Of a DNA stretch of 64,000 bases, positions 59,400 to 61,624 are shown one piece after another. Under the pieces are notes generated by a model. The model was not told where the DNA came from. It saw only the letters and a program-made list of their open reading frames with translations, and did not search any database. Location of the stretch: the IMG/VR virus record IMGVR_UViG_3300032030_000013; one strand, 5' to 3'. The first letter of the stretch is position 1; each line of letters starts with the position of its first letter. The position numbers and the translations under genes are program-made. Source of the DNA: a virus (taxonomy: Duplodnaviria; Heunggongvirae; Uroviricota; Caudoviricetes).

Positions 59400-60284
59400 T
59401 TAACCTTTATAAAATTTACATGGAAAATCTTCTTTATTAAGTTTTCCTTCTAATCCAGGGTCTTCAATTATTTTCTTTTCAATAGCGGCTAATACTTCAT
59501 CACCCCAGTTGAATTTCTTAGGATCATGTATAGCTTTCCATAAAGATTCAATTGAATTAATATCTTCTATAGTACCATTATCTCCAAATATGAATCTTAC
59601 TAAATTAGTTGGATCATTAGTGACTAATTTTTCAAATTCTTTAATCTTCTTACCATTCTTAACAGGCTTACCATTCTTTCCACAGTAATCAATCAATTGA
59701 ATGAATACACCTTCTGTATTGAATGTATGTTTCCAATGTTTCTTAACTGTAACACCATCTTCAAAATATTCATCTTTTACATCAGGAACTGGCAAACAAG
59801 ATATGACACAACTTAATGCAGCAGTTCGTACAGCACCTTTGTATTTTGATTCACCAGTCTTTAAGTTAGGAGAATGATAATATGCTTTAGCCCAGTCCAT
59901 CTTTTTAACTATCATAAAATCAACTTGTGCAATACCTTTATAACCATCTATATCATAAGGATATCCAAATGATGTAATAGTCTTCATTGTATTATAATTG
60001 ATTTCACAGTCGCCAAAGCAAGTATCAACTATTTCATTAAGTTCATCCTTAGTATCGACTTTAACTGCAACATCAATATCTCCATTAGTCTGGTCATCTG
60101 CCTTTTTGCCAATACTACCTAAAGCTGCCATATCAATATCTTTAAACTTTGATATTGAATGAACTTTCTTTTCAATCTCATCATAAACCTTAGGCGCTAT
60201 TACTGCAGGAATTGGTTCTGCTTTAACTGCATTACCACCTTCTATAACTAATGATTCTAATATATAGTTTTTAAATGATTTCAT
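59400..60284 (-). CDS. putative Pol-beta-superfamily nucleotidyltransferase, tag family (MKSFKNYILE)
   Basis: LGSIGKKADDQTNGDIDVAV fits the GS-x(9-13)-DhD minimal NTase signature. 294 aa. Function not established. Confidence 0.4.
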   Translation of the reverse strand: MKSFKNYILESLVIEGGNAVKAEPIPAVIAPKVYDEIEKKVHSISKFKDIDMAALGSIGKKADDQTNGDIDVAVKVDTKDELNEIVDTCFGDCEINYNTMKTITSFGYPYDIDGYKGIAQVDFMIVKKMDWAKAYYHSPNLKTGESKYKGAVRTAALSCVISCLPVPDVKDEYFEDGVTVKKHWKHTFNTEGVFIQLIDYCGKNGKPVKNGKKIKEFEKLVTNDPTNLVRFIFGDNGTIEDINSIESLWKAIHDPKKFNWGDEVLAAIEKKIIEDPGLEGKLNKEDFPCKFYKG

Positions 60285-60286
60285 AA

Positions 60287-60592
60287 TTATAATTTATATT
60301 TATCACATATAGCTTTAGATAATCTATTATATTCATCATTTATAAATCCAACTGATTCTTTATCTTCAGTATCCCAGTTACATATTCCTTCATCATTAAC
60401 CCAATTCCATATTGTATCTCTACAATCAGAATCTACTTGGTCAGCATCATCAGTAGGAATACCTGCATAATCATATATATCATCTATATTTTTAATTAGA
60501 TCATCAATATATTTTGTTAATTTTTTCTTACCTGATGCAGATATTTTATTTGGTGCTTTGCTTTCTAAAATAAAGTCTTTAATTGATTTCAT
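60287..60592 (-). CDS. hypothetical protein, tag family (MKSIKDFILE)
   Basis: 101 aa. Confidence 0.45.
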   Translation of the reverse strand: MKSIKDFILESKAPNKISASGKKKLTKYIDDLIKNIDDIYDYAGIPTDDADQVDSDCRDTIWNWVNDEGICNWDTEDKESVGFINDEYNRLSKAICDKYKL

Positions 60593-60598
60593 AATAAT

Positions 60599-61624
60599 TT
60601 AAAATATATTAATTGTAAATGCTTGATAATATTCTCCTTCTTTACCTTTACCCATAGTCTTATGAGATACTTTACTATGAGCTTTATATAATTCATTATC
60701 AATATATTTACCAATTTTAGAAACTGCTTCATGATGAGTATTTGAACCTTTTATAAAATAAACTCTTATTTCGTTTCCAAATACTTTAGTTATCTTAAAT
60801 TCATCTTCTTTATATCCTTTTTTATCTAAACAAGTTTTTATAATGTCTATAGCATTATTTAATTCTTTTTGATTTTCATTTTGTTTTGATTCTAAAATAA
60901 AGTCTTTAATTGATTTCATATCTTCTTTAATTTTGTTTTTTAATGATTTTTTAGATTCTTTCTTCTTAGGTTCTGGAGCATTTTCAACTTTTTCTTTAAA
61001 TTCATCAAAATATCTATCGACTCCTTTTGGCATCATTTTTGTAAATAGTTCTTTATCACCATCTAATAATGACTGACGAACTTTTGTACCAGATATTGAT
61101 GATACAAAATCTTTATCTTCAGTTCTTTCAATTTCTTCAACATAAAACGATTTTGTATATGCATCTTTGCAATCTTTATTATTTTTATTATGTTCTTCAT
61201 ATTCTGGAACTTTAATAGCCATTCCTTTATAGAAACTAAATTCATCAGAACCAGTCAACCATACTGAAGCTTTATATCCAGATTTCTTAATTAATTCACC
61301 CCATGCACATATATCTGCTGAAGAAACATATAATACATCTTCGATATCATCCTTATAATTTTTCTTAACTAATTCAAATTCTTTTTTCATTAAGTCATCA
61401 TTAAAAGGGTGTCTTGTATCTACTTTATCATCTGGTGTAGATATTGCTAATATGATTGTCTTCTGTTTAGATATATCTTCTAAATTAGGTTGTTCTCTTA
61501 ACTTATCTTGTTGTTCTTTATCTGGACCTTTAAGATCTTTATAAGTAGCCATTTTAAGATGACCTAATGTGAATGGCTGAAACCTGCCAAGACATATACG
61601 TACCTCTTTTAAATTTTCATTCAT
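60599..61624 (-). CDS. NMN adenylyltransferase-like (HIGH-family, archaeal NadM-type) domain fused to a C-terminal tag-family domain
   Basis: VRICLGRFQPFTLGHLKM matches the archaeal NMNAT motif GRxQPFHxGH. ISGTKVRQ matches the SGT/ISSTxIR motif. An internal MKSIKDFILESK tag lies about 245 aa in. Confidence 0.55.
   Translation of the reverse strand: MNENLKEVRICLGRFQPFTLGHLKMATYKDLKGPDKEQQDKLREQPNLEDISKQKTIILAISTPDDKVDTRHPFNDDLMKKEFELVKKNYKDDIEDVLYVSSADICAWGELIKKSGYKASVWLTGSDEFSFYKGMAIKVPEYEEHNKNNKDCKDAYTKSFYVEEIERTEDKDFVSSISGTKVRQSLLDGDKELFTKMMPKGVDRYFDEFKEKVENAPEPKKKESKKSLKNKIKEDMKSIKDFILESKQNENQKELNNAIDIIKTCLDKKGYKEDEFKITKVFGNEIRVYFIKGSNTHHEAVSKIGKYIDNELYKAHSKVSHKTMGKGKEGEYYQAFTINIF

Follow-up and report, generated by a model that had tools for sequence, protein, structure and literature searches.

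Two neighbouring genes at positions 59400-61624 of a 64-kb stretch of phage DNA (64,000 nucleotides, hereafter the window) may both belong to a single enzyme module conserved in huge T4-superfamily phages. In the reading which we tentatively favour, the module is a tagged kit that would heal, fill and seal broken nucleic acid, with an NMNAT-like enzyme as partner, and it is probably delivered with the virion. This reading is built on folds, motifs, family sizes, synteny, gene fusions and tag positions, from which the substrates, the packaging and the biological target are predicted. The tagged enzymes resemble an injected kit for nucleic-acid repair more than a pathway that simply refills NAD+, because both recur alongside ligase, kinase and phosphatase genes and carry a T4-like tag.

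Layout of the locus

The interval is filled by three close-packed minus-strand ORFs of 341, 101 and 294 aa. The 294-aa protein is called p294, the HIGH-signature adenylyltransferase of the 341-aa ORF is called NTase, and the 415-aa ORF next to it is called p415. The features of the window which enter the argument are as follows.

30282-32066, adjoining the prohead protease gene: Gp23-type major capsid gene (Pfam Gp23, 5.5e-29)
32184..33911, minus strand: prohead maturation protease (phrog_207, 6e-40)
56049..56573, minus strand: tagged P-loop kinase, polynucleotide-kinase-like (AAA_33, phrog_505)
57285..58751, minus strand: Rnl-type ATP-dependent ligase, 488 aa, untagged (PF09414 and invariant motifs)
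59400..60284, minus strand: p294, N-terminally tagged Pol-beta-superfamily nucleotidyltransferase, structurally like family X polymerases
59919..59921, minus strand: D122 of p294, third catalytic carboxylate (AQVDFM)
60066..60122, minus strand: LGSIGKKADDQTNGDIDVA, the hG[GS] motif and predicted metal-binding Asp residues D69 and D71 of p294
60287..60592, minus strand: 101-aa tagged ORF between the NTase and p294 genes
60599..61624, minus strand: 341-aa ORF, with the adenylyltransferase at aa 1 to ~215, a Lys-rich linker, an internal tag and an extra alpha/beta domain
60602..60889, minus strand: C-terminal add-on domain, 96-106 aa, absent from most homologues
60890..60919, minus strand: internal tag MKSIKDFILE, aa 236-245 of the 341-aa ORF
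60980..61624, minus strand: NMNAT-fold adenylyltransferase domain
61076..61096, minus strand: ISGTKVR, the ISxTxxR motif (compare YSGTEVR in 1ej2/1f9a and ISGTKIR in 3gmi)
61559..61588, minus strand: GRFQPFTLGH, nucleotide-binding signature of the (H/T)xGH type (archaeal NMNAT has GRMQPFHRGH in the alignment)
61617..62864, minus strand: p415, tagged, directly upstream of NTase and overlapping its start by 8 nt
63540..64000, minus strand: HAD-type phosphatase, running past the window end (translation; tagged DxDxT homologues)

Both enzymes and their motifs are real, far beyond chance. Hundreds of homologues were found for the 341-aa protein and for p294 each, and the AlphaFold (AF2) models of the two are confident (pLDDT 84.5 and 92.9, respectively). 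A distant blastn search with 59400-62864 found nothing similar among 50,697 phage records, and single-sequence searches of the PDB with NTase, p294, the ligase and p415 returned nothing useful. Between the NTase and p294 genes, the 101-aa gene stands as a tagged ORF of its own, and it has no Pfam or PHROG match. The sole PHROG match of p415 is phrog_22045 (unknown function), and no relative of it was found in the PDB. It was considered as the counterpart of the 387-aa and 385-aa proteins which occupy the same position in relatives, and is left without assignment because an identity of 22-28% shows no clear homology.

The two nucleotidyltransferases

An earlier note on this DNA had reported archaeal-type NMNAT motifs (GRFQPF...GH and SGTKVR) in 60599..61624, and these were borne out. 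GRFQPFTLGH (aa 13-22, with G21 and H22) and ISGTKVR (aa 177-183) are invariant among 51 homologues, and hhalign matched NTase to the NMNAT of M. thermoautotrophicum with 91% probability over GRFQPFxxGH...RxPF. R14, H22, R/K71 and R183 of NTase line up with R11, H19, R47 and R136 of this NMNAT (MTH150), of which the PDB holds engineered variants at R11, R47 and R136, and the stretch R/K71-H72-P73-F74 is aligned to R47-D-P-F. In the AF2 model pLDDT exceeds 90 across aa 10-220, and NMNAT is by a small margin the best fold match. PPAT, which the note had given as an example of a subfamily that would speak against NMNAT, was compared and is not favoured: NTase shares its N-terminal and RxPF motifs with the archaeal NMNAT/NadM type, and PPAT scored lower, though only by 1.3 Z units.

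The proposed NMNAT identity is supported by the motifs and, narrowly, by the fold, and the curated cut-offs were missed by more than 100 bits (NF002243, 20.4 bits against 127; TIGR01527, 16.4 against 181.2; the NadM model NF003791, 15.1 against 409). The cut-offs of the general Pfam and TIGR cytidylyltransferase models were also missed. Compared with archaeal NMNAT (MJ0541, 1f9a; MTH150, 1ej2) and NadM, to which its identity is ~19%, NTase carries insertions after helix 1 (29 aa) and near aa 139-155 as well as a C-terminal targeting-like tag, and it is found among repair enzymes, not NAD+ genes. Neither are the nicotinamide-contact positions evidently kept: the Asn/Trp positions of archaeal NMNAT, which we take to be these contacts, fall out of motif register in our own reading of the alignment, and W108 of NTase is not conserved in the lineages of 195-200 aa. 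By its motifs NTase appears catalytically intact, and in fold and motifs it appears closest to the archaeal/NadM-type NMN adenylyltransferase. It would most likely transfer AMP from ATP onto a 5'-phosphoribosyl acceptor. The conversion of NMN to NAD+ is the leading candidate reaction, and NAD+ synthesis is plausible as a prediction from sequence.

The second enzyme, p294, had been noted for a GS...DID motif and a tag at 59400..60284, and both were confirmed. It starts with the tag MKSFKNYILE, followed by LGSIGKK...GDIDVA and a third Asp; LGSIGKKADDQTNGDIDVAV at aa 55-74 and the third carboxylate in Q120-x-D122 vary little or not at all among 46 homologues. The residues L55-G56-S57...D69-I-D71 and D122 fit the rule of the Pol-beta superfamily, hG[GS]x9-13Dh[DE]h plus a third carboxylate. 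The model displays a palm and thumb fold as in pol beta and ASFV PolX, and the nearest structures are family X DNA polymerases, whose members (pol beta, pol lambda, TdT, ASFV PolX) have palm, thumb and the GS...DxD...D triad in common with p294. Since only ~40 residues precede the GS strand, p294 would be without the 8-kDa dRP-lyase and HhH domains, like the minimal ASFV PolX. It differs from family X in an extra C-terminal beta-sheet and helical region and in a conserved EGG motif that directly follows the tag. At the sequence level no relation was seen with ASFV PolX or human pol beta (hhalign probability <1%), Pfam at E<=0.1 gave no family, including PolX and PF10127 (RlaP), and there was no PDB sequence match. 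It should be noted here that one profile of p294 (A2) was contaminated by a fused NTase domain and gave only NTase-type PDB matches; it was replaced by an alignment of stand-alone p294 (A4).

Two known systems suggest what p294 could be doing. The PolX of Phaeocystis globosa virus (PgV) is fused to a ligase, and p294 is likewise tied or fused to ligase or ligase-like domains; the giant virus PolX-ligase fusion serves base excision repair (PMC5537341). RlaP (PF10127) is a Pol-beta-superfamily nucleotidyltransferase genomically tied to RNA ligase, an association which p294 shares. Ahead of the sealing step, RlaP adds 1-2 NMP to 3' ends of damaged RNA (PMC12776372), and p294 is proposed to do likewise. 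Unlike RlaP, p294 has no PF10127 match, folds nearer to PolX, is phage-borne and is tagged. Most likely p294 would add a few nucleotides to 3'-OH ends where nucleic acid is broken. A homologue in a Lak megaphage is untagged, and its locus lacks neighbouring NTase and ligase genes.

The decapeptide tag

The strict tag pattern has 21 copies, all on the coding strand, 20 of them exactly at ORF starts and one internal. By eye, ~26 ORFs of the window open with M-K-x-[IL]-x-x-[FY]-I-x-E, a decapeptide whose residues 4 and 7 are hydrophobic and whose positions 8-10 read I-x-E. The peptide sequence of the tag is also retained at the C-terminus and within fusions, where Met is often replaced, and a role as translation-initiation element was rejected on these grounds. 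It is known that the capsid-targeting sequence (CTS) of T4 is formed by the first 10 residues and that gp21 cuts after L/I-x-E; T4 Alt is also processed at its C-terminus (PMC9026906). The peptide described here is of ~10 residues, ends in L/I-x-E and occurs in a phage with a phrog_207 protease and a Gp23 capsid. The suggestion that the tag is a capsid-targeting signal has thus been strengthened, by the fit to the T4 CTS and the L/I-x-E site of gp21, by the Gp23-type capsid with its adjacent protease and by the conservation as a peptide. The prohead protease at 32184..33911 is a candidate for the tag-processing enzyme. Because the tag resembles the T4 CTS and ends in the cleavage motif I-x-E, the tagged enzymes would probably be loaded into the prohead, and they would then be trimmed and injected with the DNA. 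The internal proteins of T4 (IPI-III, Alt) are likewise diverse cargo behind a common N-terminal decapeptide with a gp21 L/I-x-E site. However, here ~26 ORFs in 64 kb are tagged, including enzymes, the tag is also C-terminal and within fusions, and packaging is a prediction.

In the NTase family the tag sits at the C-terminus, unlike the N-terminal tags of the neighbouring genes; it was C-terminal in 58 of 120 homologues and internal, in fusions, in 45 of 120. The 341-aa ORF has no N-terminal tag; its tag lies at aa 236-245 and is followed in frame by the add-on domain. Most NTase homologues stop just past the tag and lack this domain, which has modest AF2 confidence, and the same architecture of tag and add-on is present in the homologues P0001 and P0002, which come from independent assemblies. 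The first 30 nt of the 101-aa gene repeat the internal tag (60890-60919) exactly and in direct orientation. A third homologue, P0003, is a direct NTase-p101 fusion, that is, the deletion product predicted from the 30-nt repeat, and many different C-terminal partners are fused to NTase among the homologues. The add-on domain was probably a separate tagged gene formerly, and its fusion to NTase probably arose through recombination between near-identical tag sequences.

Conserved partners, alternative readings and significance

The ligase is identified by its Pfam match (PF09414, 28.6 bits, cut-off 27) and by motifs I, III, IV and V (K28-x-D30-G31, E95, E186-G187-x-V189 and K202), which are invariant in 24 homologues; its family profile found no ligase structure in the PDB. 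It is syntenic in three relatives (L001, L003 and L004) and lies 1-3 genes from p294 in the window, L001 and L004. The ligase carries no tag, which counts against a tagged repair module, as do the lack of a tRNA gene in the window and the fact that an ATP-type ligase pathway has no evident use for an NAD+-making enzyme. The kinase (Pfam AAA_33, 1.8e-20; phrog_505 polynucleotide kinase, 8e-23) is syntenic in L003 and L004, and HAD homologues of 220-223 aa with tag and DxDxT are present in L001 and L004. The gene order in a 460-kb relative is HAD, x, 387, NTase, x, p299, ligase, ..., kinase. A lineage of just 37% identity has a rearranged cluster, p285, ligase, p385, x, NTase, ..., HAD.

NTase and p294 are also joined directly. 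NTase-p294 fusions are present in at least 7 close homologues and in a second paralogous subfamily, and in distant multi-domain proteins the HIGH NTase and the p294 domain occur in both orders. Further domains in such proteins are a CCA-adding head, AAA_33 kinase, HD, Nudix and the KxDG ligase-like DUF6267, which in P0379 lies between p294 and NTase. The ligase-like nature of DUF6267 is suggested by its KIDG motif, and a local DUF6267 HMM gave no significant match to the window proteins, the ligase included. Fusions of neighbours are common in these phages generally (DUF285-ligase, ligase-p111, NTase-p101), so that adjacency and tag-mediated recombination, not functional coupling, may account for some of the fusion evidence.

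In the reading we favour, NTase and p294 would act alongside the Rnl-type ligase, the polynucleotide-kinase-like kinase and the HAD phosphatase, and the combined enzymes would heal, fill and seal breaks in RNA or DNA. The RNA repair system of T4 (Pnkp with Rnl1/Rnl2) is similar in that a kinase, a HAD phosphatase and a KxDG ligase are encoded together in a T4-superfamily phage. It differs in that kinase and phosphatase are separate proteins here, two extra nucleotidyltransferases are present and most components are tagged. An extended form of this reading, which we regard as a long shot, is that huge T4-superfamily phages load a full first-aid kit of kinase, phosphatase, PolX-like polymerase and NMNAT-fold enzyme into the capsid and inject it with the DNA, the tag being both address and cut site. 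The NMNAT-fold enzyme would then serve the ligase, in that it would adenylylate 5'-phosphate ends or recycle NMN to NAD+ instead of working in general salvage. A tag that is a capsid address and protease cut site would explain why it functions at N-termini, at C-termini and inside polyproteins, and how cargo can be shuffled and fused by tag-to-tag recombination without loss of function.

The counter-defence role put forward in the earlier note, in which a true NMNAT rebuilds NAD+ after attack by a host NADase defence, would be NARP2-like, with NAMPT or another salvage partner encoded elsewhere in the ~450-kb genome and p294 functionally unrelated. In its favour, phages have established pathways that reconstitute NAD+, NMNAT is ahead by a small margin among the fold matches and the catalytic residues are conserved, the distant polyprotein P0252 combines a HIGH NTase with a Nudix domain as NadM does, and a Macro domain at 9816-10277 hints at an NAD+/ADP-ribose conflict. 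NARP2 (NAMPT and NMNAT) and NARP3 (PnuC and a NadR-like protein) also include a phage-encoded NMNAT-fold enzyme that could make NAD+. However, the absence of NAMPT from the window, which had been remarked already, was upheld by searches of the 64 kb (E<=1e-4), and the same searches found no PnuC, ribosylnicotinamide kinase, Nudix or PRPP synthetase. The 12-17-kb flanks of L001, L003 and L004 hold none of these five in their precomputed Pfam annotation; the flank of LR756500.1, being unannotated, was read as ORFs only. The recurring partners are instead a ligase, a kinase, a phosphatase and polymerase-like enzymes such as p294, and with the curated thresholds missed by such a margin this role appears unlikely. 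A different doubt concerns coupling itself, as the genes could be an array of unrelated tagged cargo, fused through tag-repeat recombination, with each enzyme working alone. The exact tag repeat flanking the add-on domain, the predicted deletion product, the variety of C-terminal partners of NTase and the fusions that involve DUF285 or p111 would all be expected from this. Yet the NTase-p294 association survives rearrangement of gene order, and tagless distant proteins keep the pair in both orders with kinase, CCA-adding, HD and ligase-like domains; we therefore consider independent action improbable.

Other chemistries can be imagined for each enzyme. p294 might be a signalling or RNA-tailing enzyme of the CD-NTase, OAS, TUTase or MenT-like kind. 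It would then produce, imitate or neutralise a nucleotide signal, or else modify the 3' ends of tRNA. CD-NTase folds are not its closest structural match, and a link to tRNA has no local support because the window has no tRNA gene; such a function seems quite unlikely. The HIGH NTase, in turn, might act on nucleic acid, converting a 5'-phosphate to AppN or reversing abortive adenylylation, or it might supply an NAD+-using ligase with NAD+ made from NMN. AppN ends are chemically analogous to NAD+, NTase persistently clusters with the ligase, the p294-DUF6267-NTase fusion brings the three together, and in LR756500.1 NTase is fused to a ligase-like domain whose motif I reads ENLDG. On the other hand, the ligase of the window retains its motif I lysine, the Lys-to-Asn change is a single case in a weak alignment, and we know of no HIGH-family enzyme that adenylylates or de-adenylylates nucleic-acid ends, so that this is the least probable of the readings.

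If the module works as proposed, RNA/DNA repair in phages would extend past the Pnkp-ligase pair of T4 by polymerase and adenylyltransferase steps. It would also give a first function to a large uncharacterised family of phage proteins, with 761 clusters at 50% identity and members even in Lak megaphages. Capsid-targeting tags would deliver whole enzyme pathways at injection, before phage gene expression, and the tolerance of the tag for N-terminal, C-terminal and internal sites would offer a handle for engineered cargo in phage heads. If NTase is a plain NMNAT instead, the injection of an enzyme that makes NAD+ would be a novel variation on the ways in which phages counter NADase defences.

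The adenylyltransferase and its Pol-beta-superfamily neighbour

The interval 59400-61624 is filled by three close-packed ORFs on the minus strand, and a tagged ORF of 101 aa sits between the two enzymes:

60599-61624, minus strand: 341-aa ORF, adenylyltransferase (NTase), with GRFQPFTLGH (aa 13-22) and ISGTKVR (aa 177-183)
59400-60284, minus strand: 294-aa ORF (p294), with N-terminus MKSFKNYILE, LGSIGKKADDQTNGDIDVAV (aa 55-74) and third acidic residue D122

The NMNAT-type motifs that the earlier note had reported were thus read again in the first ORF, and the GS...DID motif of its tagged NTase in the second. 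It was overlooked there that the 341-aa ORF has no N-terminal tag; MKSIKDFILE is internal (aa 236-245) and is followed by 96 more residues.

On sequence alone, the adenylyltransferase can be assigned to the HIGH (cytidylyltransferase-like) superfamily and no finer. PF16581, PF08218 and PF01467 of Pfam were matched, every one below cut-off, and the PHROG match was phrog_3041 'cytidyltransferase' (1e-9). The best NCBIfam matches were NMNAT models, with scores of 15-20 bits where the cut-offs are 127-409, which falls short of curated NMNAT membership. A total of 122 homologues was found; G13, R14, P17, G21, H22, H72-P73-F74, W122, G125, D127, S178, T180, K181 and R183 are invariant in an alignment of 51. 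In the PDB the family profile hit nothing other than archaeal NMNAT, NadM and the TmcAL-like MJ0951, via the two motifs, and hhalign gave 91% probability against the Methanobacterium thermoautotrophicum NMNAT across GRFQPFxxGH...RxPF. R14, H22, R/K71 and R183 correspond to R11, H19, R47 and R136 of that enzyme, which we take, from the work of Saridakis and Pai, to be catalytic residues; PDB entries include its engineered R11, R47 and R136 variants. The 341-aa ORF is read as an NMNAT-fold adenylyltransferase that is probably competent in catalysis, with NMN as a plausible substrate.

Sequence searches with p294 against Pfam, PHROG and the PDB gave no match. Its structure model is of very high confidence (pLDDT 92.9). 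In structure comparison TUTases (up to 9.5), the CCA-adding enzyme (8.3), MenT (7.6) and CD-NTases with OAS (6.5-7.6) were lower-scoring folds. Among predicted viral structures the top matches belonged to uncharacterised proteins, from Agrobacterium jumbo phage Atu_ph07 and from uncultured phages, and giant-virus proteins labelled 'DNA polymerase family X' came next. Profile comparison showed no significant relation to ASFV PolX or human pol beta; p294 therefore forms a family of its own, with PolX enzymes as its closest neighbours in structure. It has 761 representative clusters at E<=1e-3 (403 at E<=1e-10), and conserves an EGG motif right behind the tag, LGSxGKK, GDIDxA, QxD, S138-P139 and K149-G-x-x-R153. 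Homologues in Lak megaphages are 28-33% identical over about 95% of the length. The one in Lak-B5 (MK250024.1, 7037-8014) is untagged, and neither an adenylyltransferase nor a ligase is among its neighbours; in-frame TAG codons occur in the ORFs around it, which fits the recoded genetic code of Lak phages.

A huge phage with a capsid-targeting-like tag

The source of the window (G+C about 27%) is a huge tailed phage, which also encodes a tail sheath and topoisomerase II.

30282-32066: T4 Gp23-type major capsid protein (Pfam 5.5e-29)
32184-33911: prohead protease adjoining the capsid gene (phrog_207, 6e-40)

The capsid protein shares 31-37% identity with its counterparts in the uncultured 462-kb phage LR756500.1, Sphingomonas phage PAU, Tenacibaculum jumbo phages and Lak megaphages, and metagenomic contigs of 404-465 kb carry close homologues of the studied genes. 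Further ORFs include a 674-aa SPFH/Band 7 protein with an N-terminal hydrophobic segment, unusual for a phage (50716-52740, minus strand, Pfam 1.4e-21), and two sigma-factor-like proteins (6384-7469 and 19083-20252, minus strand; Sigma70 region 2 at 3.7e-6, phrog_351 RNA polymerase sigma factor at 2e-13). Of the large ORFs scanned in 34077-46337 (minus strand), a stretch that includes a 2368-aa ORF, three match BspA-type leucine-rich repeats.

A strict search for the tag, a decapeptide such as MKSIKDFILE, gave 21 copies in the window, all on the coding strand and 20 at ORF starts. Counted by eye, about 26 ORFs start with M-K-[DSNQ]-[IL]-x-x-[FY]-I-x-E. The tagged ORFs (minus strand; 680-2515, 12905-19059, 49750-50610, 55651-62864) form two arrays, and the sequences behind the tag are unrelated. 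In T4 the first 10 residues of the capsid targeting sequence are enough, positions 4 and 7 serving targeting and 8 and 10 processing, and gp21 cleaves after L/I-x-E (PMC9026906; PMC3012670). The window tag agrees with these features, which lends some weight to the capsid-targeting idea of the earlier note. The tags of LR756500.1 are MKFLKSYEEFLNE and MEFVKTYLEFINE. Five ORFs (16697-17056, 17083-17451, 17458-17835, 56570-56992, 58785-59396) share a second conserved stretch, EKLIINKN[TI]K, right behind the tag, which suggests a tag sub-class or a paralogue family. Upstream of the tagged-gene array a 39-nt unit, ATAATTCAATATTCTGAGCTAAAATTTTGAATAATATTT, occurs three times in tandem in intergenic DNA (55529-55660), two copies being identical.

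In the adenylyltransferase family the tag is C-terminal (...KEGMxSLKNYILESxx-stop) in 58 of 120 homologues, the 37%-identity lineage included, and internal with another domain behind it in 45; T4 Alt is a precedent for processing at the C-terminus (PMC9026906). The tag Met is often substituted in fusion proteins while the other tag residues are kept, therefore the signal works as a peptide and not as a translation start. An exact 30-nt repeat is common to the internal tag of the 341-aa ORF and the beginning of the 101-aa gene, and the homologue P0003, an NTase fused to p101, is the matching deletion product. Thus, tag-to-tag recombination seems to create tolerated fusions, as one would predict if the protease cuts the parts from each other, and a fusion of neighbours then says less about functional coupling than it usually would.

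Gene neighbourhood and fusions

The gene order in a 460-kb relative is HAD phosphatase, 155 aa, 387 aa, NTase, 161 aa, p299, (82 aa), Rnl-type ligase and, further on, AAA_33 kinase (proteins named by length). The window mirrors it: HAD, 163 aa, 415 aa, NTase, 101 aa, p294, DUF285, ligase and, further on, kinase.

63540 onward: HAD phosphatase
58785-59396, minus strand: tagged DUF285 repeat protein, between p294 and ligase
57285-58751: Rnl-type ligase, passing the PF09414 cut-off
56049-56573: kinase, matching AAA_33 and PHROG polynucleotide kinase

The ligase family retains motifs I (K28-x-D-G), III (E95), IV (E186-G-x-V) and V (K202). A 48-kb contig whose NTase is only 37% identical keeps the set together in rearranged order (p285, ligase, p385, 258 aa, NTase and, further on, HAD).

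NTase-tag-p294 fusions occur among many close homologues (P0045, P0047, P0054, P0075, P0080, P0083, P0087), and the NTase is also fused to a second p294 subfamily (e.g. P0022, P0030, P0057, P0063, P0074, P0078, the 510-568-aa group). DUF285-ligase (P0399, P0402) and ligase-p111 fusions are found in relatives. Distant multi-domain proteins join the HIGH NTase and the p294 domain in both orders; the first two below, from the representative library, have no recognisable tags between domains.

P0263 (1636 aa): HIGH NTase, CCA-adding head, AAA_33 kinase, HD, p294
P0252 (1802 aa): MTPAP-like NTase, HIGH NTase, Nudix, p294
P0301, P0336: p294, then NTase
P0379: p294, DUF6267, NTase
P0363, P0364, P0368: p294 and DUF6267

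DUF6267 looks ligase-like because of its KIDG motif. In LR756500.1 a 653-aa protein (7564-9525) has a ligase-like N-terminal part, matching the window ligase (E 4e-5), fused directly to the HIGH NTase. Its motif I is ENLDG, the catalytic Lys being replaced by Asn; the adjoining gene (6267-7532) encodes a tagged 421-aa protein, ligase-like by its KxDG (EKLDG).

NAD+ salvage or end repair

It is possible that the adenylyltransferase serves NAD+ counter-defence, as the earlier note had proposed, but this reading gains nothing from the window or from the flanks of relatives with readable annotation. In the known phage NAD+ reconstitution systems the partner of NMNAT is NAMPT (NARP2), and that of a NadR-like enzyme is PnuC (NARP3); neither pairing is seen at this locus. 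No NAMPT, as had been noted before, and no Nudix, PRPP synthetase, PnuC or Tpt1 came up when essentially all ORFs of the window were scanned against Pfam. The sole NAD+/ADP-ribose-related gene seen in the window encodes a Macro domain protein (9816-10277, minus strand, Pfam 1.8e-11), possibly an ADP-ribose-removing enzyme.

The reading with the best support is that of a conserved module acting on broken RNA or DNA, which the NMNAT-fold adenylyltransferase constantly accompanies. Kinase and phosphatase would heal the broken ends, the PolX-like p294 would fill and the Rnl-type ligase would seal; most components carry the capsid-targeting-like tag. In function, the closest precedents are RlaP, a Pol-beta NTase associated with a ligase, which puts one or two nucleotides onto damaged RNA ends (PMC12776372), the PolX-ligase fusions of giant viruses (PMC5537341), and T4 Pnkp with the T4 RNA ligases. 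The part of the adenylyltransferase is the weakest link in the repair module. NAD+ synthesis is the default; action on AppN-type intermediates or recycling of cofactor for the ligase is speculative.

The Pfam scans of the window also found two further genes:

24924-25361, minus strand: T4 endonuclease V-like pyrimidine-dimer DNA glycosylase (Pfam 1.1e-7)
24106-24480 or 24490-24792, plus strand: MazG-type nucleotide pyrophosphohydrolase, in one of the two (Pfam scan)

A glycosylase/AP-lyase would make exactly those gaps that the PolX-like enzyme and the ligase could repair.
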